Source: Raillietiella orientalis
Taxonomy: Eukaryota
DNA: 64,000 nucleotides
Assembly (NCBI GenBank): GCA_036172245.1
Contig: JAYWIR010000076.1
Coordinates: forward strand, 310,001 to 374,000
Reading direction: 5' to 3'
The translations under genes and the position numbers were made by a program. The notes under the pieces are model-generated. The model was given only the letters and a program-made list of their open reading frames with translations. It was not told the origin of the DNA and did no database searches. Shown here in pieces: positions 1 through 35,761 of the stretch (positions are counted from its first letter, which is position 1; every line of letters starts with the position of its first letter).

Positions 1-2141
1 CCCTCCCACGACGTACCCACAGGAACGACCACGCTCTTCTCTCTGTTTACGCTCATGCACGCTCCCCGACGAATCAGGTCGAAGAAATCCTCGACACTGG
101 ACGCCGGGGTGGACATGGGGAGCAGAAGAAGCAGGTCATCAGCGTAAGCGGCCACGGCAGGCGTTCCCGGGCAGGAGCTTGGCAAGTGAGACAGCGTCAG
201 CCTGTATGCTCTTAGCACCAACTCAAAGAAGATGCTGAAGAGCAACGGGCTTAAGCTGTCGCCCTGTCGGATGCCCCTACGAACGGGACTACCATACACG
301 CGGCAGCCGCTGAAAGTAATGCAGGTTAGCGCGTGGCGCCAGCACGCGCGCAAATACAGCAGCAGTTGCGCCGGGAACCCAAGGCGTTCCATAAGCTCCA
401 AAAGCAGCTTCTGGTTTACGCAGTCGAACGCCTTGTGGAGATCGACGGCGACAACCAAGGCACCTGGCGTTCCCTCCTGCCGTCGGCGCCTGTTCTTTTT
501 GCCTGCGGCAGTGACTTTCGCAGCAGCCTGGCTTTGCTGCGTCACAACTTCCTGCAGCTGCATCCATGTACGCGCGAAAAGGATGTTCGCCTCCATGGAT
601 CGTCCCGGAACCGCGTAGGTTTGTTCCGGGCTCACCACAGATTCCGCGATACTTCCTAACCGCGCGACCCACAGCTTGGAAAACAACTTGACGTCCGAGT
701 TCACCAAGGTGATCGGACGCCAGTTGTTAAGTTGGCGCAAGTCTCCGCCTTTCGGCAGGAGACGCACCTTTGCTGAGCGGAAGGAATCAGGGACATTCCC
801 GGATTCACTCATCAGCGTCGCGAGTTTAAGCATCAAGGGAATGAGCTCCACTGCAAAGCACTGATAAAACTCTGCAGGGAGTTCATCCTCGCCTGGCGCC
901 TTTCGTCTCTTCAGCCCAGCGATTGCGGACGAAAATTCATCCGCCGTGAAGTGCTCGTCGAGACGTTCGCGTTCCTCCTCGCCGACAACACGAGCATCCT
1001 GAGACAGGAGTATCTCAGAAAGAATATCCTCCGTCGGGGATTCCGCGTAGAGCGAGGAGTAGTAGCGTCTCACAATGCGGCGTACTTCGGCTGGGGCCGA
1101 ACATTCCTGGCCCTTGTCGTCCAACAGGCATGCTGCTCCGGACTGCCAGACCTGGCGCTCGGCCCTCGCCTTGTACTCTGCGAGACGCCCGACATCAGCG
1201 CGTCTCGAAAACGTGCGGGCCTGCAGAAAGTCTCTACTGTTGGCCACACCCTCTCCGAAACCGCGTAAAAGTTGGTGCAAGGGGAATTGGCAGCAGAACT
1301 CGCGGACAGATCTTTTGAGATCGTCCCAGTCCGCAAGTTCTTGAATAGCAAAGCCTCGGAGGTATCCACGTAGAAGCTCCGCAGCCTCCGGTTGGCTAAG
1401 CCAATCCGCCTGCATCCTCCAGTTTTGCAACGGAGGCCCCCTGCCTGGCGGAAGGATCTCAAACTCCAACCTGTGGTGGTCAGAAAGCTCAGTCAACAAT
1501 CTTCCTCTCCTACTCACACGCGAATGCAGGTTTTCATCGAGGAAAACGTGATCGAGCGATCTTTCCATTCCAGGTTCGCTGACCATCAAGTTGGCGGCGT
1601 GCACGGACGCGCACATCTCGATGGGCAGCGCGCGTTCCCTCGGGCGGCTCCAATCGTCGGAGAGCAGGCGGACGTTGAAGTCCCCAGCGACGAGGTGCGC
1701 CACTTGGAAGCCGAAGTTGTTGAGCCACTGGCTCTGCACCTCACCAAAGAAAGCTACTCTTTCTTCGAGGTAGCGAGAGCCACTCGGCGCGAAGACGTTC
1801 GTAACGACGAGATCGATAGACTCGGACCACTGGATGACAAGCTGGCCTACCCGTCCGTCGTCGTCGAAACGAACACTACGCACCGCTTCCGCCATTTTTC
1901 CTCTTACGAGGAACGCGACGCCGCACGTGTGTGCGCCGCCGCACCGCCAATGTAGCGTTCCGCCTGCGCGCTCCTCGATTTCGGCTGCCTGCTCGTCGGA
2001 GATTACGTGAATCTGCTGCAGCAGCGCGAGGTCGAAGGGGCGCAGGGCATTGGCTACTAATCAACTCTTCTCGTCGTTCTGCAGTCCGTTCACGTTCCAA
2101 CACGTTACGGACAAAAGACGAGAAGACGCGATTTCCCGCAT
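1..2141 (-). pseudogene. Element A ORF2 (APE endonuclease + reverse transcriptase), disrupted
   Basis: Minus-strand translation gives CWNVNGLQ...FDLALLQQIH, GDFNV (~1680), WRPITLVNSDVKLF (~700-725), AVDLHKAFDCVNQ (~415-450) and AYADDLL (~130-150), with stops and frameshifts. Confidence 0.9.
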
Positions 2142-2143
2142 TA

Positions 2144-4062
2144 CTACTGGGAAGGTGGCGACTTTTTGCTCGCTTTATCCGGCGAGCAGACGGCGAGCAG
2201 CACGACTGGCTGGAGGGGACGGTCGTCACCGTCCTCTGTCGTGCTGCATGCATGTAATGCCTCCACGCCAGGAAGATCCCCGTCGGGTTTCGTGGAGACT
2301 TCGCGTGGCTTCGCGGCGAGCGTTGCCTGGCTGCCTACTTTTGATCGGCGCGCACACGCTTTCGAACGAGTTGTCCTCGTCTCGGTGATCGGAACGGCAT
2401 CCAATTCGGAGTCCGACCGGCGCTTGTTCGATCGGGTTTCGGCCTTCCGCGAAGCAGTGACAGGTTCTGCTGGATTGACAGCTGTCCTGTTTTCGTTTTC
2501 CGTCACCAGAGCATCGCTTTTGGTGACGGCTGCTTTCCCGGCGCGCGCGTTTGCAGCGTGCTCACGCGCAGTTGCACGAGGGACCTTTGCTGAAGTCTTC
2601 TTTACTTCATTACGGTTCCTCACTTCGCGTGGCGCCGTAAATGGAGATTGTGCTCCATTGCCATCTTTGAAGCCATCCGCGTCTTTAAACGGGAGCACTT
2701 TCGATGGCTTCGACACGCTCGTCATGGACGCTGCCTTCGGAAGGGCTTTTACTGCCTTCGTTGGCATGGCATCCGCGCCAGTCGAGAGCTTGCTCTCCGA
2801 CTGCGACGGCGTGAGATTTTTCTCCGCTTTCGCGGTGTTGGATCGCGACGCGGATTTTTTTTTGCTGACTTTCGAAGTCGAAACGGCACAACCCTTCTTA
2901 CCCGATTTGGGCTTCTCAGCCACTGCAGGAGGTGAAGGAATGGATCTGACGGTACTGGAAGTGTCCTTACCGCCGTTGTCCATTGACGTCCCCGCCGGTT
3001 GCTCGAACTCCGAGAGAGTCGGGCGTGCTTGGGAAGGACAGCTATTGCGCCTAGGGGGACTTACCATTGCCCCGGATTCCCCGCACCCTTTCTTTTGCGG
3101 CTCCCCTGCCGCGAGAGGGGGTGCGCAGGGCTTCGCGTGCGAGGTTTCCTGCTGCTTTGGGGCGACATTCCGCCTCGCGTTTTTTCGGAATTTCCGCCTT
3201 GGGGACTCCAGGTTTTTCGCAGATTTTTCTTTTTATCCGCGCTTTGTTTTTTAAAATGGAGCTCCGCGGCTGCCTTTTTTTGCAAAAGATCCGGGCAATT
3301 TTTCAATTGGTGCCCGGATAGTTTGCAATAACGGCATTTTCCAGAGGGGCATTTATCCAAACAATGCCCCTCCTTCCCGCATTGCTCGCACGTTCTTACT
3401 TTGCCCACGAACCAGAGGTGAACGACCGTGTCTTTCACCTGTAGTTTGGTAGGCAGCAGACGGCGGTCCGGCATTGTAAGCCGGACTCCAGCGACTCCGC
3501 TGTGTATGGACGGGAAGTCCTTGAGGCTGCTACGCACCCTCCATAGCGCATGGACCGTGGCGAATTTCGCCAACGCGTTCCGAATATCAGTATCGGAGAT
3601 TTCCGACTCGATGTCGAAAATCTCCACCACAAATGAGTCGTCCATGGCGGCCCGGAAGACCTTCTGGCCACGGATCGACAACGGGGTGCGCAGCAAGCGT
3701 TGCACAAGTGCAGCGTCTTTGCAACGCACCTTGAAATAGCCCAGGTCTTTTACGGGCATAATGGCGAGAAGGTCATCCTCCCGCACGCCAACACGGGTCA
3801 GTTCATCGTTGAACTGATTTCCGTCGCGCGCAGAAAGAAAGCCACTCACCTTATATCGGAGAGCAGGTCTATAGCCTTGGGCTACGTATGCCCGCAACTC
3901 CGACTCGTCGAGTGGTTTCCCTTTGACGGCTGCTCTGGCAGCAACGTCAGCAAAACTCCTCTCCATTGGCGAGAAAGACGAAGTGGAGGCGGCCGTCGGT
4001 TCCGCGATTGCAGATCCGGATGCTGTTCCTCCAACTTCAGTAGCTTCAAGTTGGGTCGACAT
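2144..4062 (-). pseudogene. Element A ORF1 (Gag-like, zinc knuckles), frameshifted near 3065
   Basis: ORFs 3061..4086 (CEQCGKEGHCLDKC, CRYCKLSGHQLKNC) and 2144..3067 (K/S/A-rich tail). Homologous to ORF1 of element C. Confidence 0.85.
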
Positions 4063-4141
4063 CGTCGTCAAAATGTACGACGCCAAGATGAAGCGGATGA
4101 AAGCACGGAGACGAGAGCGAAGAAAAACACGTCCGCACCCG

Positions 4142-4600
4142 ATTGAAATCTTTCGCTATCAGGTGAGCCTTTCGCACATTGGTATCCGCCAGCCAGTCGC
4201 GCTTCAGGGATTCAAGAAGCCTGGTAAGGTTGCTGTATCCCTTTTCACCGGTTGGGGCGTACACATTTGTGACGATCAGATCGATCGAGTCGGACCAGCC
4301 GAGTGTCAGCTGACCGACCCGACGGTCGTCATCGAAGCGCACGCTCTTCATGGCAGCGTCGATGGCCGGCTTCACGAAGAACGCAACCCCGCAGGTGTTG
4401 CGGATGCCGCATTGCCAGTACAGCCGACCCCTCGCGATCGTTTCGATCTCCTGGACGTCTGCCGCGGTGATCACGTGGATCTCCTGCAACAGGGCCAGGT
4501 CGAACTCCCGCAGGTGTCGGCTGTATCTCGCCTATTACCGTCTTCGCGCAGCCCGTTGACATTCCAACAGGCCGCGCGAATCCGACGGCGACTGGCGTGC
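4142..4600 (-). pseudogene. Element B ORF2 APE fragment
   Basis: WNVNGL, QEIH, CGVAF, NVYAP and KDFN motifs; truncated by insertion of A. Confidence 0.85.
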
Positions 4601-4816
4601 CCAGGTGTTACTCCTGGGAAGATGGAAGGCGGCGTCCGCCACCTTTTGGGGCGGGACGCTAGGTGGAGGAGGAGGGTGAGGTGCTGAAGGCACCTGGTCC
4701 CCCTCCTCCATAGGTAACGGCGCGTCAAGCGGGTCACCCACAGGTGGGGTCGCGCCTACCTGTTCGCCCTCCTCCAAGGGGCGGGCTGTTCAGGGTCGGC
4801 GCCTGCTGGGAGGACT

Positions 4817-6358
4817 TCACCCCCCTGTCCACCCTCCTCCATGGGGGTGGCCGGATCGACGGCTTCCGAGCGTGGGAATTCCTCCTCCGAACTTCCCACG
4901 CTGGCAACGGATTCCGTCTTCTCCTCCTCGTTGTTGGAAAGTTAGGCGCCTCCTGGGCTTCTGGGACTTGCGTGCCGACTTCCTGGGGGGTGCCTCCGAG
5001 GTGGAGGATGTACTTCCGGCCCCCAGGTCTAACTCACCTGTGGGGGCTTTCTTCGCCGGAGCCGGCCTTCGCACGTCCTTGCGCGAGGGGTTCTCACGCT
5101 CGGCCAGCGTGACCGCGAGCTCCTCCGCCGCCTGCGCGAACGCGGCGTCCGCGGCTTCGACCGCCGCTATGTCGCGCGGCTCACCCTCTGTGTGAACAGA
5201 GGGTTCGCCGTCGCGAGCCTCTGGCGCAGCGGAAACGGCAAGGGGAGGATCGACGCTCCGGGTGGCAATCTCGGGAACGACGATTCGTTCCAGTGCCACC
5301 GTGCACTCGCGCAAAGTTTTCGAGCGCGGACCGGGTTTCTTCGGCTTACCGGCCGTCTTGCCCTCTTTGCTCTCCGCGGGTGGGAGTTTTCTCGGCTTTC
5401 TGGCCTCTACAAGCTTCCATCCCTCTTCGCCTTCCACCGTTTCAGAAGGTTTATCCTCCGGCTTACGCTCCGGAGGTTGAGGTGTTGGCAGGTTGTGCTG
5501 GCCCTTTTCTACTTTAGGTCTAGAGACCTTTGAAGCGCGTTTTGCCTGCACTTTTTTCGCGGCAGGGGGAACCGGGGTGGGGTGTTTGGGACACACGCGC
5601 CGAACGTGGCCCCGCTCCCCGCACAAATGGCATTGTATATTGGGACACCTTTTACGTAGGTGTATCACGGTATCACAATGCCCGCAATACCGGGGCTTCC
5701 CTACATACCACAGATCGACGTTTTCTTGCGCCACCTGTAGTTTGTGGGGAAGCCCACAATTCTCCCGTATGGTGACCCGCGCTGCAGCCTGCCCACCAAA
5801 AAGGCTATCGAAGCCGTCGAAAATGGAGGGTTTCGGCCACAGTGCGTGCACCTCACCGTATTTTCGCAATTCCTCACCAACCGCTGACCGCGTCATGCGG
5901 CTGGTGATGCCAGTCATGTGGACAACCACGGAGCGGTCCATTGATACTGGCAGGATCTTTCGGCCGTCTACGTTCAGCGGTGCATGGATTAGGCGGTGAG
6001 CCAAGGTGACATCTTTGCAGACCACCTCGACCCGCTGCCCGCCGCTGAGGACGGAGAGGCCGTCCAGATCCTTCTCAGTGACATTCGCGTCCTTCAACGC
6101 TTTCCTGAAGGCGCGCGCTGTCCGGCCGTCGAACAAGTTGCCTACCTGGTGGACAAGCGATGGCTTGTACCCGGAGGCCTTGTATGCGGCCATCTCCGCC
6201 ATGGCTTCTGCGCTGGGCGCGGCCACCATGGCGCTCCATGTCCTCGGCGTGGCCGGGGATGATTCCGGGGCGGCTGCCCCTGCTCCAGTAGGCTGTGGGG
6301 GCGAACTAGCCTCCCCCACTCCCACCTCCATCGCGGTGTCCTCTGCCGTCGTGGCCAT
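4817..6358 (-). CDS. Element B ORF1 (Gag-like zinc-knuckle protein)
   Basis: MATTAEDT start at 6358. CGHCDTVIHLRKRC and CHLCGERGHVRRVC knuckles. Homologous to D/E ORF1. The true 3' end is probably a little further (possible frameshift). Confidence 0.8.
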   Translation of the reverse strand: MATTAEDTAMEVGVGEASSPPQPTGAGAAAPESSPATPRTWSAMVAAPSAEAMAEMAAYKASGYKPSLVHQVGNLFDGRTARAFRKALKDANVTEKDLDGLSVLSGGQRVEVVCKDVTLAHRLIHAPLNVDGRKILPVSMDRSVVVHMTGITSRMTRSAVGEELRKYGEVHALWPKPSIFDGFDSLFGGQAAARVTIRENCGLPHKLQVAQENVDLWYVGKPRYCGHCDTVIHLRKRCPNIQCHLCGERGHVRRVCPKHPTPVPPAAKKVQAKRASKVSRPKVEKGQHNLPTPQPPERKPEDKPSETVEGEEGWKLVEARKPRKLPPAESKEGKTAGKPKKPGPRSKTLRECTVALERIVVPEIATRSVDPPLAVSAAPEARDGEPSVHTEGEPRDIAAVEAADAAFAQAAEELAVTLAERENPSRKDVRRPAPAKKAPTGELDLGAGSTSSTSEAPPRKSARKSQKPRRRLTFQQRGGEDGIRCQRGKFGGGIPTLGSRRSGHPHGGGWTGG

Positions 6359-6450
6359 TGGACACCGACGATGTACACAAAACACCACACAGAAGAAAAA
6401 GCGCTTTCCTACTACTCTTTGGGGAGTGAAGGAAAAACACGTCCTGCAAC

Positions 6451-6649
6451 TGGCCGTGGAGGGTTCTGGCTGCAACGAGGCTGCCAGCTCCTCCGCGGCT
6501 CGCGCAAAGGCTACGTCATCGATGGTGGTGTAGATGACGGACGCCGCCACCGGCTCGCTCTTCTCGCTGTTGACATAGTCAACAGAGGGGTTGTTGTCGG
6601 TAGCGGCGAGTTCTTTTTCGCAGCGGTCGGGAATGCGCTCCACGACAAC
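6451..6649 (-). mobile_element. Element E (D family), middle ORF1 segment between the C and B insertions
   Basis: Encodes VVERIPDRCEKEL...DDVAFARAAEELAASLQPEPST, colinear with D ORF1 (14570-14770). Joins in frame to 19414 across TSD ACGACAAC. Confidence 0.9.
6642..6649 (+). repeat. Target-site duplication ACGACAAC of family C (other copies 17991-17998 and 19414-19421)
   Basis: The identical 8-mer precedes C1, separates C1 from C2, and follows C2. Confidence 0.92.
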
Positions 6650-6657
6650 TGTGGCAC

Positions 6658-6666
6658 GGACGTGTT
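6658..6666 (+). promoter_or_regulatory. Conserved 5' GGACGTGTT motif (DPE-like internal promoter element) in A, B, C1, C2, D and E
   Basis: The same 9-mer lies within ~15 nt of all six 5' junctions although the UTRs otherwise differ between families. The promoter role is inferred. Confidence 0.65.
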
Positions 6667-6736
6667 CTGTGTTGCTCCACGAGCGTGATTCCTTTCCGTC
6701 TTCTTGTGTGTGGTGTGCCCGAGTGCGTCCACTGGG

Positions 6737-8680
6737 ATGTCCACGGAGCCCCTGCAGCAAAACATGGATGTGGAGGCTGCTACTGGCAGTGGAGTCTCTA
6801 CTCCAGATGTCCGGTCCGCCTCTGATTCTTGTGTCTCGCCATCGGCGAGAAGCTTCGCCGCCGTCGTCAAGGCGGCGGCAGCCAGCGGAGCAACGCCCGA
6901 CGAAGCGGAGCTGCAGGCATATGCAGCCCATGGCTACAAGCCTGCGCTCTGCTATCCGGTAAGTGCTGCGATCTCCTACGGGGTCGGAGAAAATCTATGG
7001 GATGAGCTTTTGCGCGTCGGGGTCCGACAGGACGACCTCCTGGCCGTCATGCCGGTTAACGCGCTCGGACACTGGGAGGTGCAATGCAAAGAGGCATCCC
7101 TAGTCCAGCGCCTTCTCCGCACCCCGCGAAATATCCGCGGGAAGGAGGTCGTCCCGTCGGCCATGGACCAGTCGTTCGTGGTCGGATTATCCGCCGTCCA
7201 GGTGGACACGCCCGATCGCGTGCTCGTTGCTGCACTAAGTGCATTCGCCACGGTGCACGCGCTGTGGAGAGCAGAAAATCCGATCAAAAGGACTGCATCT
7301 CTTCACAGCGGACTTGCCATGACGCGTGTCACCATGGCGGATAGGAGGCAAATGCCTCCGCACTTGCAGGTGGGCGATGCGATCGTCCACCTTAAATTTG
7401 CCGGTCAGTGACCGGCTTGCGACATTTGCGGTGCCGAGGACCACCGTCCGTGGACGTGCCCTTCACGCAACTGCCGCTATTGTAAACAGCTCGGCCACTC
7501 CATCAAAGAGTGCGCCAAGCTAAAGAGAAAGCGGCAGGCGAAAAGCCGCCAACAATCGACCCCGTCCGCGCCGAAAAGATTTCCCGTTGTGCCACGGGAG
7601 AAATCGGGCGCGAAGGGCGGGGCATCTTCGAGTAGAGGTCCCGCGAAAAAGGGCGCGGTTGCTTCAGGAAAGCCACCATCCCAGACAACCGCGCAGACGG
7701 GAAAGATGCCACGTCGCTCTGGGGGCAAATCGCCCCCTTCGAAACAGCCTAAGAGTGCGGGCACGCACTCAATCAAGGCTGCTGAACCGTCCGCGTCCGC
7801 TTGCGCGTCCAGCGGAGCACACGGGAAACCGTGCGCGGGTACCCTCGGAGCTGCCTCTGAACGGCAGTTTCCTCCTACGGCGGTGGAGATCACTTCATCC
7901 ACGCCGAAGGCACGGGCAGCGAAGGCTGCAATAGCGCCTCGCGGGACGACGGCAATGACCGCCGTTTCGCCCGCATCGGCTAAGGAGCAGGTGCAGTGCG
8001 TAACGGGGACGGAGCCGTCTCCCGCCGCGAGCGCGAAACGTGATCCGGCATCTCCGGCCAAACAATTGAGGGAGGCGTCGGCCTCCCAGGAGGGCGTCCC
8101 CGACGCGGGTTGGACTCGAGTCTCCAGGACGCCCACAAAGGGGAAGAAGAAGGTTGACCCTTCAATATTCCCCATCCTTAAGGTGGGTGGGAGGCAAAAG
8201 AGAAGCACGCCGAAGAAGGTGCGTACCCAGGTACGCACTACGGCTGCGTGCTCTGTCTCCGTCGCTTCGCGCGAGAGGGCGGCTGCGGAAGCCAAAGCTC
8301 CGGAAGCTGCGTTGGCGACTGCGACGACACCCGCGCGGGCAGGGCAAGCCTCCACCTGCCGAAACAAAAAGAGACTGGCAAAACGCCAGTCTCGCGCCAG
8401 GCACTCGGACTCCGAGGTGGAGTCTGAGTGCAAACAAATGGAGCGCGCATCCCGGGGTAAGTCGGTAGCGCGCCGGGCTTAGGTGCGAAAGCACGAGACT
8501 GTTGCCGGAGGCGGTTCCGGCTCCTGCACGGAGACCGAGGCGATGATCCTCGGCTCCCAGGACTCAGCTGGGCGCGATGTGGCGGCGAACGGGAGCGATT
8601 CCGCTTCCCAATCCCCTCTCCTACCAGCTGACTTCTCGCCGGACGGGGCGAGGAGCACGCCGTCATGTCCGCAGCAGTGA
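6737..8680 (+). pseudogene. Element C1 ORF1, two in-frame stops (7409-7411, 8480-8482)
   Basis: ORFs 6704..7411, 7589..8482 and 8483..8680 are in one frame. Knuckles CDICGAEDHRPWTC and CRYCKQLGHSIKEC follow the first stop. Confidence 0.85.
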
Positions 8681-10394
8681 TGCGTGGACTCGCGTCCGCT
8701 CGTCGCGTCAGCGTGGCCTGTTGGAATGTCAACGGGCTACGTGATGCTGACAAAAGGCGGACGGTAGCCAACGCTTTGCGCGCGTTCGATCTGGTGCTGC
8801 TGCAGGAGATACATAGCATCTCCGTACGGCAGGCATCGGATCTGGAAGAGCGCGCGGGCAGGACGCTACACTGGCGGCAAGGCTCCGCGCACACGTGCGG
8901 AGTCGCGTTCCTCGTCCGAGGCAGGGTGGCGGAGGCGGTGCGGAACGTTTGTTTCGACGAGGAAGGTCGTGTGGGCCAACTTGTCCTCAAGTGGTCCGAA
9001 TCGATCGACCTGGTCGTTACGAACATCTACGCGCCGAGCGGCGGCCGGCATTACGCCCAGCGACTTGCATTCCTGGGTGGCCTGCGCAGCCGCTGGCTCG
9101 CTGACTCCGGCCCTAACGTGGCGCACCTCCTTGCAGGAGACTTCAACGTCCACCTGCTAACAGAGGAGAGATGCCGCTTGAGGGAGAAGCAACTGGTGAG
9201 CGAGGTATGCGCGTACGTGCGCGTGCAAAACTTGCTTGCTGGTGAGCCCGGGATGGAGAGATCGCCAGACCATGCGTTCCTCGATGAACACCTGCTCTCA
9301 CGAGTAGGTCGGAGAGGGCGCCTGCTGTCCGCGATTTCGGATCATCCTAGACTGGAGTTCGAGTTCCTCCCGCCTGGCAAAGGGCCTCCGATGAATGTCT
9401 GGAGGTTGCCGGCCGACTGGCTTAGCAATTCGGAGGCGGCGGAGCATCTCCGCCAACACCTCCGGGGCTTCGCCATCTGTGAACTCGAGGACTGGGACGA
9501 TCTGAAAAGATCTGTCCGCGAGTTCTGCTGCCGGTTGTTCTTGCACCTGCTTCCCCGCGGCTTCGGGGAGGGTGTCGCGAACAGCAGATCCTATCTGCAG
9601 GCGCGTACCTTTTCACGATGCCCGGACGTCCGGCGTCTGGCGGAGTATAAGGCCAGGGCCGAGCGCCAGGTTTAGCAGTCTGGAGCGGCTTGTCTGCTCG
9701 ATGACGCTGGCCAGGAATGCTCGGCTGCAGCCGAAGTACACCGCGTAGTCAAGCGCTACTGCTCCTCTTTGTACGCGGAGGAGCCCACGGAACGCAGTCT
9801 CTCCGAGCTGCTTCTTCCGACGGGCAACCCTGCTATCGACGAGGAGGAACGCGCCAGATTGGGTTGGCCCTTCACGGCGGAAGAAGTATCCTCTGCCATA
9901 GCGGGCCTGAAGAGGCGTAAGGCGCCTGGGGAGGATGGCCTGCCCGCGGAGTTTTTTCAGTGCTTCGCGGCGGAGCTCGTCCCCCTGGTGCTAAGCCTTT
10001 CCTCGCTGATGCGTGAGACGGGAGATGTTCCCGCTTCTTTCCGCTCAGCAAAGGTGCGGCTCCTGCCGAAAGGCGGTCATTTGCGCCACCTCAGCAACTG
10101 GCGTCCGATCACATTGGTGAATTCGGACGTCAAGTTGTTCTCCAGGCTATGGGTCGCGCGCCTGGGAAGAATCGCAGAGTCCTTGGTAAGTCCGGAGCAG
10201 ACGTATGCTGTTCCGGGTCGGTCCATGGACGCGAATCTCTTCTTCGCGCGAACATGGTTTGAGTGTCAGCAGCGCGTGGCGCAGCAGAGCCAGGCAGCCG
10301 AAATCGCCGCTGCCAAAGGAAAGCAGCGGTGTTCAAGGCACGATGGAACGCCGGGAGCCTTAGCGGTCGCCGTCGATCTCTGCAAAGCGTTCGA
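8665..10394 (+). pseudogene. Element C1 ORF2, 5' half (APE + RT up to KAFD)
   Basis: WNVNGL, LQEIH, GDFN, SDH, KAPGEDGLPAEF, WRPITLVNSDVKLF, AVDLCKAFD; stop at 9673-9675. Confidence 0.92.
10383..10394 (+). repeat. 12-bp TSD of element D: CAAAGCGTTCGA (partner CAAGGCGTTCGA at 15925-15936)
   Basis: Removing D and one TSD restores VDLCKAFDSVNQDLLLELLERLGLP in C1 ORF2. Confidence 0.92.
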
Positions 10395-13600: not shown

Positions 13601-14194
13601 GTGGTCAATGCTGTCTTCCATCCCCGGTGCACTGGCCAACAGATTACAGGTGTGCACCGCCATGCACACCTAGTTGACCAGGTCACGCTCGGGATTCTGC
13701 TCATCTGGTTTCAGGCGAACGTTGAAATCGCCTGCCACCAGATGGGCATTCCGCACGCCTGCTTCGGTCAGCCAGTCTCGCCGGAGGGCAAAGAAAAACT
13801 GTTTCCTCGCCCTCCTGTTCATCAGGTCCTTGCCGCTCGGTGCGTACACGTTCGTGACGATCAGATCGATCGAGTCGGACCACCTGAGAGTCAGCTGGCC
13901 GACACGACCGTGATCATCGAACCGCACGCCCCGAGCCGCGGCCTCGACGGCTGGCCGAAGCAGGTAGGCGACACCGCAACTTTTCGCTCTCCCACACCTG
14001 TACCATAGCCGCCCTCCGGAGATCCGTTCGATCTCTTACGCTTGTTCTGCAGAGATCACGTGGATCTCCTGCAGCAGCGCAAGGTCGTAGGACTCCAGAA
14101 GAGCGGCCATGTCTCGTCTCCTGCCGGCGTCTGTCATGCCGTTCACGTTCCAAACGGCGATGCGCAGACGACGGCGGGAGGAAATTCCCGGCAT
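10614..14194 (-). pseudogene. Element D ORF2 (APE-RT-C-terminal zinc motif), several nonsense codons and a frameshift
   Basis: ORF pieces 13670..13927, 13196..13669, 11972..13105 (IDLRKAFD, GIRQGDSLSPLLF, YADD, FKYLG) and 10614..11678 (CVRCGERQSLPHLLVDC). Confidence 0.92.
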
Positions 14195-14208
14195 TACTGC
14201 TGGGAAGA

Positions 14209-15828
14209 TTAAGGTGTGGGGGAGCCCTCCTCTTGCGAGGCGGGCGGGATGTCCATGGGGGTTTCGGCCTTCTCAGGCACCTGAGGCACCTGTCCGGCCC
14301 TCACCCCCTCCATCCCCTCGGTGTACGTGCGTGGGAGTCTCTCGGGCGACGGGTCCCGAGAGTTTCCCACGCTCATGGCACCCTCGCTTGCGGAAGCCAT
14401 CTCTTCCCCTTCGACGGGGGAGACGAGCTTCCTTGGCTTTGTGGAATTACGTCCAGCCTTCTTGCGCGGTGCCGTGGAAACGGAGGCTGCGCTTCCGGCC
14501 TCCACCTCGGGGTCGGAAGTGGGGGATTCCTGAGGGGAGGCCGAACGCCTGACGGCCTTCTTGCCAGCCTTGGAGGGTTCTGTCTGCAACGAGGCTGCCA
14601 GCTCCTCCGGGGCTCGCGCGAAGGCTACGTCATCGATGGTGGTGTCGATGACGGACGCCGCCGCCGGCTCGCTCCCCTCGCTGCTGACAGTGTCAACAGA
14701 GGGGAGGTCGTCGGTAGCGGTGAGTTCTTTCCGGCAGCGTTCGGCAACATCGAGAACGCGTTCGACAACGACGCTGCACTCTTTAATAATCGCGCTACCC
14801 TGCTCTTTCTTCTTCTGTTGGTAGGCGATTTTCTTTTCCATCATCCTCTCCTTCTTTGATTTTTTGGCCGTTGCCACTTGCCACTTAGTCTCCTGACCGG
14901 CTCCCTCAACTTTTTCGGCGTTGGTCGCCGAGGTCTCGGAAGCGGCCTGGGTCTTGGGCGCGGGTGGCACAGCCTTCGCGGCAGCTTTCGCCGCCAGCCT
15001 TTTCTGCAGAAGCCGGGCGCGTTTTTTAAGGTTTCTCTTGGAAACCACCCGCACTGCTGCTTTTGGGCACACCTCCCTCGTGTGGCCCATTGTGCCGCAT
15101 ACTTGGCACTGCACATTGGGACACCTCTTTTTGAGGTGGCCCGACGTATTGCAGAAACCACAGTATTTCGGCTTCCCCACATACCAAAGGTCGACGGTTT
15201 CGCCTTCGACCACCAGTTTGTGGAGAAGAGTGCAGCCCTCCCGAACGGTCACGCGCGCAGCAGTGAGGCCGTGTTGCAGCCCCGTGTAGTCCTCGAAAGG
15301 ACTTACTTTCGTCCACTGCGCGTGGACCGTTCCGAACTGTTCCAAAACGGCGCGAACCTGTTCTTTGCGCATCCGCGCGGTGACGCCTAACAGGTGGACC
15401 ACCATGCTGCGGTCCGCCGTAGTGGGGAGGAGCCTGCGCGTCCCCATCACAGCGGGGGTTTTAAGCAGTCGTTGGGCCAGCTCTGCATGTTTGCAGATGA
15501 CCTCAACGTACTGACCCCCGCTGCGGATGGTCATAGCGCTGAGCTCCTCCTCTTTCACATCAAGAGCGCGCATGCCCTTCGAGAAGGCGCGCGCGCTCTC
15601 TAAAGAATAGAAATTGCCTACCTTGTAGAACAATGAGGGGTTGTACCCCACCTCTACATAGGATAACAATTCCGCCGCGGCTGCAGGCGATGGCGCCGAC
15701 ACAACGGCGCTCCACGCCCGCGCTGCAGCGGGGACCGATTCTATGGGGGCGGATGCCCCCACCTCCATCGCCTCTGAGGGCGACGTTACCGCTGCCCCCT
15801 GGCCATCCCTGCGGGTCGCGTCAGGCAT
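14209..15828 (-). CDS. Element D ORF1, intact, 539 aa Gag-like zinc-knuckle protein
   Basis: MPDATRRD start at 15828; CGFCNTSGHLKKRC and CQVCGTMGHTREVC; open to 14209. Confidence 0.88.
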   Translation of the reverse strand: MPDATRRDGQGAAVTSPSEAMEVGASAPIESVPAAARAWSAVVSAPSPAAAAELLSYVEVGYNPSLFYKVGNFYSLESARAFSKGMRALDVKEEELSAMTIRSGGQYVEVICKHAELAQRLLKTPAVMGTRRLLPTTADRSMVVHLLGVTARMRKEQVRAVLEQFGTVHAQWTKVSPFEDYTGLQHGLTAARVTVREGCTLLHKLVVEGETVDLWYVGKPKYCGFCNTSGHLKKRCPNVQCQVCGTMGHTREVCPKAAVRVVSKRNLKKRARLLQKRLAAKAAAKAVPPAPKTQAASETSATNAEKVEGAGQETKWQVATAKKSKKERMMEKKIAYQQKKKEQGSAIIKECSVVVERVLDVAERCRKELTATDDLPSVDTVSSEGSEPAAASVIDTTIDDVAFARAPEELAASLQTEPSKAGKKAVRRSASPQESPTSDPEVEAGSAASVSTAPRKKAGRNSTKPRKLVSPVEGEEMASASEGAMSVGNSRDPSPERLPRTYTEGMEGVRAGQVPQVPEKAETPMDIPPASQEEGSPTP

Positions 15829-15924
15829 CGCTGCCTGATCGACCACCGAACCACACGACGCTTGCACTGGGGAAGACTTCCTGTCACGAGGAGCACCGAG
15901 AAAACACGTCCACCCTGGAGCGCA

Positions 15925-17785
15925 CAAGGCGTTCGACAGCGTAAACCAGGACCTCCTTCTGGAGCTTCTGGAACGCCTAGGCCTCCCGACGCACCTCATC
16001 GCCTACTTGCGCTCCTGCTGGCGCCACGCGTTATGCTGTATCTCTTTCAGCGGGCGTCACGTGTACGGTGTTCCCATACGGCGGGGTATCAGGCAGGGAG
16101 ACAGCTTAAGCCCCCTGCTCTTCAGCATCTTCTTTGAGTTGGTGCTGAGGGCGTACAGGCTGACGCTGGCAAACCTGTCGAGCTCCTGCCCGGGAACACC
16201 GGCCGTGGCTGCCTATGCTGACGACCTTCTCCTGCTGCTGCCCATGTCCACCCCGGCATCCAGGCTCGAGGACTTCTTCGAGCTCATTCGTCGGGGAGCG
16301 GGCCTGAGCGTGAACAGGACGAAATCAACCGTTGTACCGGTTGGCTTTACGTGGGAGGGGCAGTCCGACTGGATCCGCCTGGGGATCCCCACGGGCAGGT
16401 GCTTGAAGTACCTCGGCGTTCCCTTGGGCGCCTTCTGTCCAGCAAAAGCGTGGTCGGATTGCCTTCACAAGACCGAGACTGCTCTGGGCCCGTTCGAAGG
16501 CGGCAGGTTTCTCCTGTCGGAACGGGCCTTCGTGTGGAACATTTTCGTTACCCCCCTCCTCCGTCCCCTCTTTTTTGTTTGTCCACCTCCCTACTCGGCT
16601 AAGCGCCGGGCGCAACGCCTGTTGCGTATCGCCCTGTGGGGACCGGCGAGGTCCAGGATACGCCTGAAGGACTTGGCGGCTCCTCGGCGGGATGCAGGAT
16701 TGGGCATCCTGACGCTGGAGCGGATCGGACTGCTAGTGCAGTTCCTCATGCTGGCACTTTGTGCCCAGCTCTATACTACTCCCTGGTGTGCTCCAGCGCG
16801 GCTGCTGCTGCGGCGCTGCACGGATGGCGACGGACTGCGTTCGTTGCATTTGCGCACGGAGCGCGTTTTAAAAGGATCCGGCTTCCCTCTGAAGCAGCTT
16901 GCTTCGGTTCTGGAAAAGCATTGGTGGATCTCCTGCCGGCCGACGAACTTCAACGCCTGGAGGCAGGAAGCCTTATCGTCCTGGGCAGCGCAACAGGATG
17001 TGTCCCGTTTGGAACTCCGTTGCGTGAAACTTTCCCCATACTGTCCAGTGGGGGAGGTGCTGGAAGACCAGGACCAGTGGACACGCCTAGCCGCTACGCC
17101 ACTCGCCGGAGCACTGTGTGCACTGATGGTGCGAGATGACAGTGACCTGCCGGCGAGGTGGGAGATCACTTGCGAAATCGCATGCGAAACCCGACTGCTG
17201 GGCGGCTGGCGGACTTGCGAAGTGGCAGACGCTTCCACACCCCGCATTCTTGCAAAGGGGCTTCTCCGGTGGAGTGAGCTCCTCGGGGTGCCCACCGATG
17301 AACTTGTGGTCCCTTCTGCGTGTTTGGACGCGACTCTCTTCCCCCTTCGGTGGAAGCAGGACGCTTTTCTGCTGGTGCATTGGGGTTTGTACTGCAACCA
17401 GCGGGCGCACCTGATTTCCGGGGGAGTTGCGTCCCCGAACTGTGCCAAATTGGGAGCGGTGGAAACGCTTCCGCATTTGCTGTTTGAGTGCGGTGCCCTC
17501 CAGGAGCTGTGGCAGCGGCTGTCTTTAGCGCTCCTGCACCCTGGACACACCGCACTGGATTGGATGCGCCGCTTCTACACGCGTGGCGGACTTTCTCTTG
17601 GAGCGGTCGTCGCAATCATCTGCTGCGTCCGCGCCATTGTCAGGGCCCGCCACGTATTGCAGATGCGAGCAGTCCCAACATCGGTCCCCGACACCGCAGC
17701 CTGCAACCTGCAAATGGCTGCCGGCCGGCCACACCTGGGAGCAGAAGTGAGGACGGAGATCGGCGGCATTCATTGCCGGTTCTGA
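15925..17785 (+). pseudogene. Element C1 ORF2, 3' half (RT from KAFD to C-terminus), open frame
   Basis: KAFDSVNQ, GIRQGDSLSPLLF, YADD, LKYLG, ETLPHLLFEC, ending EIGGIHCRF*. Confidence 0.92.
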
Positions 17786-17960
17786 GAATAGGAACGGTTA
17801 GACAGTATACCCCTGTCCCCGCCCTCCCACCCAGTTTATTTATTTATTGTCCCACCCCCTCCCGTTCCGAACTCTCAGTGTGCCCGGACTGCGTTCCGGG
17901 AAATCTACTCCCCATTTTCTCTTCCCCTTGCCTGGGAACACAGTTCTCAGTTGATATTTT

Positions 17961-17990
17961 AATAAACGTCCCGGCGCAACCGGGTAATAA
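17961..17990 (+). terminator. Conserved 3'-terminal AATAAA + CCCGG-loop-CCGGG hairpin + short A-rich tail (also in D, C2, F, H)
   Basis: C1 AATAAACGT-CCCGG-CGCAA-CCGGG-TAATAA; F AATAAACGC-CCCGGG-CGTA-CCCGGG-TGTAA; D (minus) AATTAACGC-CCCGG-CGAAAT-CCGGG-TGAAAA. Confidence 0.8.
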
Positions 17991-17998
17991 ACGACAAC

Positions 17999-19413
17999 TG
18001 CCGCACGGACGTGTTATGTGTTGCTCCTCAAGCGTGATTCCTTTCGGTCTTTTTGTGTGTAGTGTGCCCGAATGCGTCCACTGGGATGTCCACGGAGCCC
18101 CTGCAGCAAAAGATGGATGTGGAGGCTGCTACTGGCAGTGGGGACTCTTCTCCAGATGTCCGGTCCGCCTCTGATTCTTGTGTCTCGCCACCGGCGAGAT
18201 TCGCCGCCGTCGTCAAGGCGGCGGCAGCCAACGGAGCACCGCCCGACGAAGCGGAGCTGCAGGCATATGCAGCCCATGGCTACAAGCCTGCGCTCTGCTA
18301 TCCGGTAAGTGCTGCGATCTCCTACGGGGTCGGAGAAAATCTATGGGATGAGCTTTTGCGCGTCGGGGTCCGACAGGACGACCTCCTGGCCGTCATGCCG
18401 GTTAACGCGCTCGGACACTGGGAGGTGCACTGCAAGGAGGCATCCCTAGTCCAGCGCCTTCTCCGAACCCCGCTAAATATCTGGAAGACCAGGACCAGTG
18501 GACACGCCTAGCCGCTACGCCACTCGCCGAAGCAATGTGTGCACTGATGGTGCGAGATGACAGTGACCTGCCGGCGAGGTGGGAGTTCACCTGCGAAATT
18601 GCAGGCGAAACCCGACTGCTGGGCGGCTGGCGGACTTGCGAAGTGGCAGACGCTGCCACACCTCGCATTCTTGCAAAGGGGCTTCTCCGGTGGAGTGAGC
18701 TCCTCGGGGTGCCCACCGATGAACTTGTGGTCCCTTCTGCGTGTTTGGACACGACTCTCTTCCCCCTTCGGTGGAAGCAGGACGCTTTTCTGCTGGTGCA
18801 TTGGGGTTTGTACTGCAACCAGCGGGCGCACCTGATTTCCGGGGAAGTTGCTTCCCCCTAACTGTGCCCAATGCGGAGCGTTGAAATCGCTTCCGCATTT
18901 GCTGTTTGAGTGCGGTGCCTTCCAGGATCTGTGGCGGCGGATGTCTTCAGCGCTCCTGCACCCCGGACACACCGCACTCGATTGGATGCGCCGCTTCTAC
19001 ACGCGTGGCGGTCTTTCTCTTGGAGCGGTCGTCGCAATCATCTGCTGCGTCCGCGCCATTGTCAGGGCCCGCCACGTATTGCAGATGCGAGCAGTCCCAA
19101 CATCGGTCCCCGACACCGCAGCCTGCAACCTGCAAATGGCGGCCGGCCGGCCACACTTGGGAGCAGAAGTGAGGACGGAGATCGGCGGCATTCACCGCCG
19201 TTTCTGAGAACAGGAACGGTTAGACTGTATACCCCTATCCCCGCCCTCCCACCCAATTCATTTATTTATTGTCCCACCCCCTCCCGTTCCGAACTCTCAG
19301 TGTGCCCGGCCTGCGTTCCGGGAAATCTACTCCCCATTTTCTCTTCCCCTTGCCTGGGAACACAGTTTCCAGTTGATATTATGAACAAACGTCCCAACGC
19401 AACCGGGTAATAA
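17999..19413 (+). mobile_element. Element C2, internally deleted 1.4-kb copy of family C, tandem to C1
   Basis: 17999-18480 matches C1 6650-~7134; 18481-19413 matches C1 ~17060-17990. Both termini and TSDs are kept. Confidence 0.93.
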
Positions 19414-20611
19414 ACGACAACGCTGCATTCCTTAATTTGCTCGCTTGCCTGCTGTTTTTTCTGGCGGTACGCGAGCTTTTTCTCTAATCTTCTTTCTTTT
19501 TTTGTTTTTTTGGCTGTTGCCACCTACCACCCAGGCTCTTGGCTAGTTCTCTCGACTTGTTCGGCGTTGTTCGCCTGGGTCTCGGGTGAGGCCTCAGCTT
19601 TAAGCGCGGGTGGCACAGACTTCGCGGCAGCTTTCGCCGCCAGCCTTTTCTGCAGAAGCCGGGCGCGTTTTTTAAGGTTTCTCTTGGGAACCACCCGCAC
19701 TGCTGCTTTAGGGCACACCTCCCTCGTGTGTCCCATTGTGCCGCATACTTGGCACTGCACATTGGGACACCTCTTTTTGAGGTGGCCCGACGTATTGCAG
19801 AAGCCACAGTATTTCGGCTTCCCCACATACCAGAGATCGACGGTTTCGCCTTCGACCACCAGTTTCTGGGAAAGAGTGCAGCCCTCCAGAACGGTCACGC
19901 GCGCAGCCGTGAGGCCGTGCTGCAGCCCTGTGTAGTCCTTGAAAGGACTAACTTTCGTCCACTGCGCGTGGACTGTTCCGAACTGTTCCAGAGCGGAGCG
20001 AACCTGTTCTTTGCGCATTCGCGCGGTTACGCCTAACAGGTGGACCACCATGCTGCGGTCCGCCGTAGTGGGGAGAAGCCTGCGCGTCCCCATCACAACG
20101 GGGGTTTTAAGCAGTCGTTGGGCCAGCTCTGCATGTTTGCAGATGACCTCAACGTACTGACCCCCGCTGCGGATGGTCATAGCGCTGAGCTCCTCCTCTT
20201 TCACATCAAGAGCGCGCATGCCCTTCGAAAAGGCGCGCGAGCTCACTAAAGAATACAGATTGCCTACCTTGTAGAACAATGAGGGGTTGTACCCCTCCTC
20301 TACATAGGCCGACAACTCCGCCACGGCTGCAGGCGATGGCGCCGACACAACGGCGCTCCACGCCCGCGCTGCACCGGGGACCGATTCTGAGGGGGCGGAT
20401 GCCTCCACCTCCATCGCCTCTGGGGGCGACGTTGCCGCCCCCCCTGGCTCTCCATCGCCTCTGGGGGCGCCGTTGCCCCTGCCCCCTGACCATCCCTGGT
20501 GGTCGCGTCAGGCATCGCTGCCTGATCGACCACCCAACCACATGACGCAAGCACTGGGAGAGACTTCCTGGCACAAGGAGCACCGAGAAAACACGTCCGC
20601 CCTGGAGCAGG
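19414..20611 (-). mobile_element. Element E (D family), 5' end and ORF1 N-terminal part
   Basis: Roughly 95% identical by eye to D over the knuckle region. ATG at 20515; short tandem duplication ~20409-20485; GGACGTGTT at 20590-20598 (minus). Confidence 0.93.
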
Positions 20612-22711
20612 CAAGGCGTTCGACTGTGTTCACCAGGAGCATCTGTTGGAGCTCCTAAGTCGCATGGGCTTCTCACCCTCCTTGATCACTTACCTGCGTT
20701 CTTGCTGGCGTAATGCGATTATCTGCATCTTTTTCAGCAGTCAGAAGGTGTATGGCGTGCCGGTGCGGCGGGGCATCAGCCAGGGCGATAGCCTGAGTCC
20801 CCTGCTCTTAAGTACCTACTTTGAGTTGGTGCTGAGAGCGTACAGGGTGACTTTGGCCCCTTTGCCGAGCTCGTGCCCCGGCACGCCCGCTGTAGCAGCC
20901 TATGCCGACGACCTTCTGCTCCTCTTACCTATGTCCACCCCGGCGAAGGCGTTCGGAGACTTCTTCGATCTGCTCAGCCGTGGGACAGGACTGCAGATCA
21001 ACAGGGCGAAGTCGTCGGTGCTGCCAGTAGGTGCGGCGTGGGCAGGGCACTGGGTCCGTCTGGGGATCCTCACGGCGAGGTACCTCAAGTACTCGGTGTG
21101 CCGTTGGGGGACTACTTTCCTGCGGAAGCGTGGTCCAGGTGCCTGCAAAAAGTCTAGACGGCGATCGGCCCGTTCCTGGAAGGCAATTTTCACTTGCCGG
21201 GACGGGCCGCGGTTTGGAACGCCTTTGCGGCACCCATCCTCCGCCCCTTGCTTTTTGTTTGCCCCGCCTTAGGAGTTGTTAAAAAGAGGACGAAGGTTCT
21301 CCTCCTCATCGCCCTTTGGGGCAAGGGGAGGCCCCGAGTCCCTCTGAAGGACTTGTGCGCTCCGCGTCGGGACGGCGGTCTTGGACTCCTGACGCTGGAG
21401 TGCGTGGAAATCCAGCTGCGATGGCGAACCCTCGCCATCGCAGCGAAGATGTGGAGCACCCCTTGGTGCGTTCCGGCCCGCCTCCTTGCCAGGCGTGAGT
21501 CCCGATGCGAAGGACTCGCGTCGTTTCTTCTGTGCCCTGGCCGGAAGATTCGAAGATGCGGCCTTATGCTCGGACGAATAGCAACCCTGGCGAAGGTGAC
21601 CGGTTGGGTGGTTTGCTGCCCCGCCAACTCCTCTGCCTGGCTGGAGGAGACTGCAGGCACCTGGGCCAAGCAGAACCGGAGAAGAGAAGAGAATATAAAC
21701 TGCCTGCGAATCGGCCCATACGCCAACCGCACTCTGCGGGAAATACTGGAATTTCCCCGGAGTCTCAGGTGGGCGTTGTCGACTCCCCTTGCTACGGCGA
21801 TGCCCTACCTCCTGAGGGCGCTTCAGGATCGCCAGAAGCCGAGGTGGCAAGTCACTTGCCAGATCGCAGGCAGGGAGAAGATGTTAAGTGGCTGGACCAC
21901 AGGAGAACTGGCGGACGCCACGACCCCGAGCGTCCAGCCGCGTGGATTGATGAGATGGGGCGAGCTGCTCGCTATCCCTACCGATGTGCTGAATTGGCCC
22001 CCGGTACTCAAGGAATCCAGGATCCTGCCCCTTAAGTGGCAAGAGTCGGCGTTGCTACTGCTTCACTGGGGTTTACCCTGCAACGCACGCCGCTTCCACT
22101 GGACAAGGGGATCTGTGGATCCTGAATGTGTCAGGTGCGGAGAGCGGGAATCGCTCTCCCACCTTATTGTGGACTGTGCTGCCCTCCGACCCCTCTGGGA
22201 ACGGTTCGGGACAACCCTCGGGCTCCCTACGGGCAGCACCCCCAGAGACGTTCTTCGGCCCCTCTTCGTGAAGGACGCACTGCAGCCAGCCGCAGCCATC
22301 GCAGCCTTGTGCTGTGTCCGTGGCATCGTGGCGGCATGGAGCGACGCCAACTACGGAGGAGTGGGTCCACACGCGAGGGATGTCATCCCATATGCCCAAC
22401 GGTTCTTGCGGAGAGCTGCCGGGTGGCCCCAACTGGGGAATATGCGGATGGACCTCGAAGGTTTCCTTCAACGGATGGGCCCTCCTCACAGCGAGTAGTG
22501 ATCCCTTCCCTGCCCTTCAACTTCTTTTTGTTTGTTTATTTTTTATTTTTCTCTTTGTTTTACCGCCATCCCTTTTCTTTGATATGGAACGCTACGCCGG
22601 GCTGCGTCCCGGCGTCCCGGCAGGTCCCGTGCGTATGGCCGTTAGCGGGGTCTTGTACTGCGTATGCAGGGTATTTTTAAAATAAACGCCCCGGGCGTAC
22701 CCGGGTGTAAA
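20612..22711 (+). mobile_element. L1/Tx1-clade element F, 3' half (RT from KAFD, C-terminus, 3' UTR); probably B family
   Basis: Starts KAFDCVHQEHLLELL, has YADD and CVRCGERESLSHLIVDC, stop at 22498, AATAAA + hairpin 22681-22705. Family assignment is inferred from the target site shared with B. Confidence 0.9.
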
Positions 22712-22873
22712 CCTCCAAGGCTGGCAAAAAGGCAGTTAGGCGTCCGGCCTCCACCGAGGAGTCGGTAACTTCCGACCTCAAGGCGCAGGCCGGAAACGAA
22801 GTTTCCACCTACGCGGCACGCCGCCGGAAGGCTGGAAGGAAGTCCAGCAAACCCCGGAAAGCCCTTCTCCCAG
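22712..22873 (+). mobile_element. Element G, D-family-like ORF1 fragment (host of F)
   Basis: Encodes SKAGKKAVRRPASTEESVTSD...RRKAGRKSSKPRK, matching D ORF1 SKAGKKAVRRSASPQESPTSD...RKKAGRNSTKPRK. Confidence 0.85.
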
Positions 22874-23148
22874 CCGGCGATGGATGCCGGAGAGATCGCC
22901 GGCATCCATCGCCGGTTTTCAAAGGAAACAACGGACTCACCAGAGACCCCTGTCCCCTGCGTACCATATTTTTATTTTTATTTTTTATAGTAGTGTTTTT
23001 GTGGTCCTTTCCCTGCCCTTCCGGACTTTCGCCATACCCACCTGCGTGTCGGGGATTCCACCCCTTTGGTATCTTGTTTTCCCCTTTGTCCAGGAACTCT
23101 GTTCCCGGATAGTTTTTTAATAAACGCCTCGACGCACCCGGGTGATAA
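22874..23148 (+). mobile_element. Element H, 3' terminus of a C/A-subclade element with a 17-bp 5' inversion
   Basis: EIAGIHRRF resembles the C terminus of C (EIGGIHCRF), followed by a T-rich UTR, AATAAA and a degenerate hairpin. Confidence 0.75.
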
Positions 23149-23296
23149 ACAACCGCCCCCCCGCGATCGTTTCGATCTCCTGGGCGTCTTTTGCGGTGAT
23201 CACGTGGATATCCTGCAAAAGCACCAGGTCGAAATCTCGCAAGGTGGCGGCTGTGTCCCGTTTGTTTCGGTCGTCGCGCATCCCGTTGACGTTCCA
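23149..23296 (-). mobile_element. Element I, B-like APE fragment
   Basis: WNVNGMRDDRNKRDTAATLRDFDLVLLQDIHVITAKDAQEIETIAGGRL, colinear with B 4420-4570. Confidence 0.85.
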
Positions 23297-35700: not shown

Positions 35701-35761
35701 TGACCTGGTTTACGTCCTGGTGAACCCTCCAGTCTGGCTTCTTTCCCTACTTTAAGGAAGG

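Follow-up and report, generated by a model that had tools for sequence, protein, structure and literature searches.

Nested retrotransposons that reuse insertion sites within one another's coding sequences at a locus of Raillietiella orientalis

Introduction

Do retrotransposons crowded into one locus land in one another indiscriminately, or does each of them seek a defined sequence inside its neighbours? The question is raised by a 64,000-nucleotide (nt) stretch of Raillietiella orientalis DNA (GenBank assembly GCA_036172245.1, contig JAYWIR010000076.1, positions 310,001 to 374,000 of the forward strand), referred to here as the window. Its first ~23.3 kb (1-23298) is a nest of nine copies of non-LTR retrotransposons (LTR, long terminal repeat) with apurinic/apyrimidinic-type endonuclease (APE) and reverse transcriptase (RT) domains, and AT-rich unrelated DNA follows from 23299. 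The nest is GC-rich (GC 0.599 and a CpG observed/expected ratio of 0.99 over 1-23296, against GC 0.447 in 23296-42000). A preliminary description of the window had proposed that several related families insert site-specifically and reciprocally into one another. The presence of nested, site-reusing long interspersed nuclear elements (LINEs) is confirmed by the present analysis, and site-specific, reciprocal insertion is well supported at this locus. The block is probably explained by LINE families each of which has its own sequence-specific target inside a sister family.

Element map and nesting order

The map is based on self-BLASTN, tblastx and junction alignments, with coordinates accurate to +/-2 nt. 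The letters A to H are those of the preliminary description, which gave no coordinates for them; they were matched through its nesting order and its phrase 'B/F, C, D, H families'. P0001, named in several entries, is a 1290-amino-acid (aa) protein with APE, RT and zf-RVT domains; ORF stands for open reading frame.

1-4141, minus strand: A, with a complete 5' end (Pfam; tblastn to P0001 residues 18-675; 5' motif at 4133). ORF1 is split over two frames; the open ORF2 (APE and RT) spans 686 aa and continues beyond the window start.
4142-6452, minus strand: B, the 5' 2.3 kb, made up of the 5' untranslated region (UTR), an open 542-aa ORF1 and the APE N-terminus as far as the DFN motif (5' motif at 6443). 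The remainder lies past A, outside the window; identity to ORF1 and APE of D is 68-69%.
6453-6649, minus strand: E (D-type), downstream piece, equal to D nt ~1152-1354, between the B and the C1/C2 insertions; 89% identical to D 14567-14747.
6650-10395, plus strand: C1, left part, with a complete 5' end, ORF1, and ORF2 APE and RT up to the KAFD codons (5' motif at 6659). ORF1 has one in-frame stop and a weak zf-CCHC match; identity to A across APE-RT is 73.5%.
10396-15921, minus strand: D, a full-length copy of ~5.5 kb (P0001 residues 19-872 matched in tblastn; termini; junctions). ORF1 is open (569 aa) and ORF2 lies in several broken frames.
15922-17998, plus strand: C1, right part, from the RT at KAFD to the ORF2 end (a 620-aa open frame), then 3'UTR and 3' end (3' motif at 17980). 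It is 82% identical to A 43-437 and collinear in tblastx with the C-terminal halves of F and D; its final 6-8 nt are a target copy.
17999-19415, plus strand: C2, an internally deleted C-type copy (5' 483 nt plus 3' 934 nt) in tandem behind C1; 95.3% and 95.2% identical to the C1 ends.
19416-20608, minus strand: E (D-type), 5' piece, equal to D nt 1-1148 (5' motif at 20597).
20609-22712, plus strand: F, from the KAFD codons to the 3' end (RVT_1, weak zf-RVT; 3' motif at 22701), with the left half outside the window; 77-80% identical to D in the RT and 70-77% to C1.
22713-23150, plus strand: G (D-like), internally deleted, with an ORF1 piece (equal to D 14579-14408), the ORF2 end and the 3'UTR (3' motif at 23138); 75% identical to D ORF1, its 3'UTR collinear with those of the other families.
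23151-23298, minus strand: H, an APE N-terminus resembling that of B, truncated on its 5' side where the APE domain starts (WNVNG). Its identity to B 4420-4566 is 83%, and it adjoins the unrelated AT-rich DNA from 23299.

Rebuilt from these pieces, with each host written before its guest, the nest reads H > G > F > E > (C1 > D; C2), together with E > B > A. From G inwards, this order equals the one that the preliminary description had given; H is added to it and forms the outermost shell. For A, B, E, F, G and H, the left part must extend beyond the window start. Eight of the nine insertions lie inside a sister element, and five of these eight (D, E, C1, C2 and G) are antisense in their host.

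When the guests are removed, the hosts are restored collinearly. For example, A 424-2189 corresponds to the left part of C1 and A 43-437 to the right part, the two being contiguous in A; they overlap on A by ~14 nt, in correspondence with the target duplication. Likewise, the E pieces rejoin as D nt 1-1148 and ~1152-1354. Contigs of an independent public sequencing run contain an uninterrupted C-type RT, in which the joint from 10245 to 16004 measures 216 letters against the ~217 expected for an empty site, and D is hence an insertion and not a part of the C-type sequence. These contigs were aligned to the window as at least 509 pieces at >=85% likeness, the parts of the window left uncovered being uninformative. 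The ORF2 of C1 continues through 17060, collinear in tblastx with the C-terminal halves of F and D. A separate family made up of 17060-17998 and 18481-19421 was also considered and rejected on account of this collinearity; the two segments are the 3' parts of C1 and C2.

The boundaries carry constant ends. The 5' end is visible in six elements (A, B, C1, C2, D and E) and is full length in each, with a common GGACGTGT motif 8-11 nt downstream of its start; copies of one family agree in their leading bases (D with E, C1 with C2). The 3' end is visible in C1, C2, D, F and G, and all five finish in AATAAACG..CCGGGT(R)(W)AAA(C) with no poly(A). An AATAAA-like word precedes the final ..CCGGGT(R)(W)AAA(C), and the five share one terminal sequence (..CCGGGTRWAAAC). 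A hairpin sought at the 3' end amounts to a 5-bp stem with no covarying or compensatory pair, and no structural claim is made for it. The constant ends and the junction alignments bear out the earlier statement that the junctions are true element termini placed within the ORFs of sister elements.

The domain content was assessed with Pfam in the 18 long ORFs of the block. RVT_1 scored above the cut-off in four ORFs and below it in one, Exo_endo_phos scored above it in two, and zf-RVT (two ORFs) and zf-CCHC (one ORF) gave scores below the cut-off only. Exo_endo_phos and RVT_1 are both above the cut-off in ORF2 of A and are also present in the C1 and D pieces. In tblastn, P0001 (24% identity) is collinear on five major stretches and several small ones. 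The solved structure closest to A ORF2 in a PDB search is human L1 ORF2p (8uw3, 8sxt and others; E 8.5e-40), R2 proteins following at E 2.9e-14 or weaker in this coarse comparison, which covers solved structures only. The APE and RT domains, the collinearity with P0001 and the lead of L1 ORF2p far ahead of R2 point to LINEs of the L1 superfamily, that is, APE-type non-LTR retrotransposons with APE followed by RT in ORF2 and an RT nearer to L1 than to R2. L1 elements proper have a 3' poly(A), and neither a poly(A) nor an A-rich tail is present at any of the five visible 3' ends.

Target sites used more than once

Three positions in the nest each hold two insertions, as the preliminary description had stated, and at all three of them nucleotide and orientation coincide. 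At the first site the guests are D (in C1) and E (in F), both antisense and both at the same nucleotide of the KAFD codons of RT motif A; KAFD aligns to the 'EKAFD' of human L1 ORF2p. On the plus strand, D and E both have ..CCCTGGAGC at the 5' end, and AAGGCGTTCGAC of C1 or F comes within 2-4 nt after it. A 15-nt target duplication surrounds D (10381-10395 and 15923-15937). The word is occupied in two of its three copies in the window (C1 and F), the one in A being free.

At the second site, B in E and F in G are both inserted in the sense orientation at the same nucleotide of the D-type ORF1. The E piece ends CCTCCACGGC and the G piece starts CCTCCAAGGC, and D holds the undivided word. The implied duplication is 9-10 nt at D nt ~1346-1354. 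Occupancy in the window is again two of three (E and G), with the copy in D free. The free copies of the two sites are as follows.

411-435, minus strand: free copy of the first site in the A RT, covering the KAFD codons and bases downstream of them (pattern search, motif scan).
14561-14580, minus strand: free copy of the second site in D ORF1 (pattern search, alignment).

At the third site, C1 and C2 stand in tandem, antisense in E ORF1, at one common position. The 8-nt word ACGACAAC occurs before C1 (6642-6649), between the two (17991-17998) and after C2 (19414-19421), and the two guests are ~5% different. The usual reading of such a tandem pair is a double insertion.

Two further positions are single observations. 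A is inserted in B, in the sense orientation, at the codons of the catalytic 'DFN' motif of the APE, which aligns to 'GDFN' of L1; at 4134-4160 the complete 5' end of A meets B exactly behind these codons. G is inserted antisense in the APE of H, 279 nt upstream of the A-in-B point in APE coordinates. The A-in-B junction makes the APE motif the second conserved enzyme motif, after KAFD, to serve as a landing site.

The reciprocity proposed earlier is likewise found in the map and the junction alignments: D-type elements insert into C and F, and C, B and F insert into the D-type ORF1. All six nestings that involve a D-type element are between classes (D-type with non-D-type). D itself carries different codons at its own motif A (12488-12499, minus strand), where it reads AAAGCATTCGAT against the target AAGGCGTTCGAC, with three synonymous differences. 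These may protect D from its own kind, as a form of self-immunity, the observation coming from a single copy.

Alternative explanations

Of the other accounts of the block, the best surviving is an accumulation targeted to a region, or simply passive, as in the heterochromatin-like or centromere-like islands of ZeppL, with no specificity at the level of the base and with the repeated junctions produced by segmental duplication, gene conversion or ectopic recombination. Nested clusters of L1-type elements for which no sequence target is known occur at green-algal centromeres (bioRxiv 10.1101/2025.03.28.645958). The other 40 kb of the window is without a recognisable gene, as would suit such an island, and a 4/15 mismatch in the duplication around D, described below, could mean that the left and right parts of C1 come from different copies that have recombined. 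Against this, the C1 ends are both ~95% identical to C2, as expected for a single C1 copy.

The first site speaks against segmental duplication. A duplicated segment is expected to be equally diverged on both sides of a junction, and a 5'-transduced flank should be as similar as the element that carries it. In 100-nt bins to the left of the junction, the identity between D and E is 0.91-0.98 across the first 900 nt, with 0.87 and 0.75 in the two final bins; to the right, that between C1 and F is 0.71-0.84 across the first 800 nt and 0.63-0.70 further on. The step in identity between inserts (91-98%) and targets (71-84%) falls exactly at the junction, which argues against the segmental duplication of one event, an origin that the preliminary description had itself allowed for. 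The B/E and F/G junctions, moreover, lie on opposite strands, in hosts of unequal identity to D (89% for E, 75% for G). A further candidate, 5' transduction by D-type elements carrying a piece of RT, was rejected with the same identities and with the collinear restoration of C1.

Chance is also a poor explanation for the three exact coincidences. Two independent insertions on one nucleotide (+/-2) and one strand of a ~5.5-kb target would have an estimated p of ~5e-4 for each site, and the 20- and 25-nt target words have 0.01 and 0.00 expected occurrences in shuffled windows. An island without base-level specificity is therefore unlikely, the three coincidences being very improbable by chance.

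Slightly less likely again is a specificity that comes from RNA or cDNA homology, in which bits of the host are co-transcribed and the flank-bearing cDNA anneals or recombines with copies of the host family in a homing-like manner. The 5'-side and 3'-side target copies around D differ by four transitions in 15 nt, as if one of them had been imported, and target-like bases follow the 3' ends (AAAC|GACAAC). For R2-type and Tx1-type elements, co-transcription has been discussed as a way of strengthening target-specific integration (PMC4494074). However, the identity of the hosts falls at the junction, leaving no imported tract longer than ~15 nt, and an initial nick at a defined place would still be needed.

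A chimeric assembly that joined repeat copies is highly improbable: the region is entirely repetitive, the one public run with related sequence covers 10% of sampled words and none of its contigs listed spans the stretch, yet the junctions join non-homologous sequence (a terminus against an antisense ORF), carry target duplications and leave restorable hosts, and a 3755-nt public contig ~98% identical to A (12 differences in 670 nt) continues ~28 nt past the A 5' end into B-type sequence.

Several observations weigh against sequence-specific targeting of sister families. The two 15-nt duplication copies of D differ at four positions, all of them transitions, and do not form a textbook target-site duplication; neighbouring comparisons would predict ~1 mismatch at most, divergence elsewhere being ~5-10%. 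Possibly a few flank bases came in with the transcript, or the copies exchanged sequence afterwards. Each site has been used only twice, with all of the uses at one locus, and only one junction of each second-site insertion falls within the window. What the window contains of B and F does not overlap, and their status as one family is not demonstrable there. The tandem pair at the third site could come from a single event with template jumping, or from unequal exchange. The outermost copy, H, is 5'-truncated in unrelated DNA, which means that targeting is not absolute and that the system is not closed in the strict sense.

Protein relatives that run uninterrupted through KAFD might be added to these points, and they are uninformative here, not contrary. 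The ORF of the right part of C1, which starts 27 codons inside the antisense 5' end of D, has one close match, P0048 (59% identity), uninterrupted at KAFD; P0119, from the representative library, is 75% identical over 80 aa and also uninterrupted there. The junction-bearing ORF of F had no protein match at E <= 1e-10.

A probable mechanism

The junctions, their orientation and reuse, the family-constant termini and the collinear restoration of the hosts can be read directly from the window. They were probably produced by at least nine successive events of target-primed reverse transcription by several related L1-superfamily families. In each family the APE would nick a specific word, on a specific strand, within a sister family; the nick would prime reverse transcription, and a second nick 15, 9-10 or 6-8 nt away would give the duplications that are observed. 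D-type elements would nick the antisense strand at the KAFD codons of the C-type or F-type RT and insert with a 15-nt duplication. C-type elements would insert antisense at ..CACGACAAC/GCTG.. in the D-type ORF1 (~nt 1150), and could do so twice, giving a tandem with a target copy between. B-type and F-type elements would insert in the sense orientation at ..CCTCCAAGGC.. in the same ORF1 (nt ~1346-1354) with a 9-10-nt duplication, and A would represent one insertion at the GDFN codons of the B endonuclease.

In R1 and TRAS elements the target specificity is set by the APE endonuclease. By analogy with these and with Tx1L (PMC4494074), the encoded APE would be the determinant of specificity here. 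Conserved coding motifs may be favoured as targets because active elements cannot easily mutate them, and each insertion would kill a rival copy while delivering new targets for other families. The preliminary description had likewise inferred a safe haven and/or mutual inactivation. A wider proposal is that at least three sister families form a self-renewing reciprocal network, with endonucleases retuned to each other's RT motif A, APE GDFN motif and two ORF1 sites, in which copies disable competitors and add landing sites and synonymous changes provide escape, as in an arms race of one transposable element against another. This proposal is tentative and somewhat more doubtful than not, in distinction to the targeting of sister families at this locus.

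If the pattern holds genome-wide, transposons would here partition a niche made of each other, and the families would provide a clean natural system for competition, mutual parasitism and the evolution of target escape among selfish elements. If it does not, the locus is a well-resolved nested LINE island. Should the targeting be as proposed, several related APE endonucleases (~50-65% aa identity in tblastx segments) would recognise different long sites of ~10-15 nt or more, and such a set is the comparison needed for learning how LINE endonucleases are retargeted, with interest for site-specific gene insertion tools.

Comparison with known systems

Several LINE lineages are known to share one renewable multicopy niche, namely R1 and R2 in 28S rDNA and the telomeric trio HeT-A, TART and TAHRE. 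The niche in those cases is a host sequence or a chromosome end, whereas in the nest it is the ORFs of partner elements. Human L1 has only a loose TTTT/AA target preference, and the match of its ORF2p to A ORF2 is limited to the RT and the neighbouring region. Among LINEs of a shared niche, as in the nest, double insertions give tandem pairs (compare McGurk & Barbash, PMC5932611).

The closest precedents for targeting a transposon are LINEs of the Tx1 group, a clade found in animals. Examples given in one paper (PMC4494074) include Tx1L in the piggyBac element Tx1D, Tx1-Mar in Mariner-N4_AMi, Tx1-9_AMi in Harbinger, Tx1-8_Crp and Tx1-4_AMi in LTR retrotransposons, and Keno in U2 snRNA genes. 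The same paper takes >20% of flanks of one kind as the criterion for a target-sequence preference, and reports tandem copies that sandwich a target duplication for target-specific elements mobilised by Tx1. Tx1-group LINEs resemble the nest elements in being APE-type, in using one position and orientation of a multicopy sequence, transposons included, and in forming tandem sandwiches. The nest differs in that its targets are the coding sequences of sister LINEs, in its reciprocity and in the absence of a poly(A) or microsatellite tail, and its elements are classified here to the level of the L1 superfamily only.

Self-nesting LINEs form a second group for comparison, with Cnl1 of Cryptococcus (PMC9942834) and Zepp/ZeppL of green algae (bioRxiv 10.1101/2025.03.28.645958). 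Their copies, like those of the nest, lie mostly inside other non-LTR copies in nested arrays. In each of them, however, one family inserts into itself, at subtelomeres or centromeres, whereas the nest holds several families that hit each other at different defined sites and in either orientation. D-in-D and C-in-C nesting are absent from the window, the sole exception being the C1/C2 tandem at a D-type site. The nest is thus not one L1 family nested in itself, as Zepp/ZeppL is, its nesting being between families and at fixed sites; nor is it an array of tandem self-insertions of the Cnl1 kind, since C1/C2 is the only tandem and five of eight nested insertions are antisense.

The novelty is hence narrower than the preliminary description implied. 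Transposon-targeting LINEs of Tx1 type and self-nesting LINEs were already in print (PMC4494074 and PMC9942834). The literature search found no account of sister LINE families that reciprocally use fixed ORF sites, which is weak evidence, as few subscription journals and no Repbase Reports were covered.

Relatives and coding capacity

RT nucleotide identity between the families of the nest is 66-82%, and public data contain next to nothing of these families. Compared with longer proteins, A ORF2 had 47 matches, every one of them at <=29% identity. The named matches in the protein searches, with no named Tx1 reference among them, were L1-like proteins of plants and of assorted animals (24-40% identity). 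In the protein collections, P0048 and P0119 alone exceeded 50% identity, and a representative protein library gave 7353 matches at E <= 1e-3 with a single one at E <= 1e-30. Metagenome contigs held at least 22 related loci at 22-39% identity, with none of the nest families among the matches listed. Prokaryote genomes contained one related locus (24% identity) and none of the nest families, and a collection of viral contigs had no related locus.

No copy is seen to be intact over both ORFs. ORF1 is open in B and D and ORF2 in the visible part of A and in the right part of C1; ORF2 of D is broken, and C1 and F each have a stop or a frameshift. A 725-aa open frame at 4817-6994 (minus strand) runs from B ORF1 through the B 5'UTR and the E piece into the antisense of the C1 5' end. 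Open frames of this GC-rich block span element boundaries, and frame length by itself is therefore no proof of coding.

Two of the nine copies, C2 (17999-19415) and G (22713-23150), are internally deleted; in each, the 3' ~0.3-0.9 kb follows directly on a 5' or ORF1 piece. Such copies, with both termini retained, could be non-autonomous riders. The 5' region of E (20400-20450, compared with D 15720-15760) has a 41-nt internal duplication that D does not have.

Flanking DNA

The nest sits in a gene-poor, repeat-rich region. Between 23299 and 64000, none of 71 ORFs of >=110 aa had a Pfam match, no Rfam match was obtained, and no host gene was recognisable in these 40 kb. Two copies of an 845-bp direct repeat, 97.8% identical, lie at 40207-41051 and 62649-63493 and contain a fragment of another LINE's RT, on the minus strand and equivalent to P0001 residues ~607-750. 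Beside them, 39295-39544 and 63497-63745 are 73.7% alike, and neither this pair nor the 845-bp repeat has a DNA-level relation to the nest families. An inverted repeat (43496-43690 and 44970-45162, 85.6% identical) is found in a GC-richer stretch at 42-52 kb (GC 0.51-0.58, CpG observed/expected 0.99) that had no Pfam match, and it may be another mobile element.

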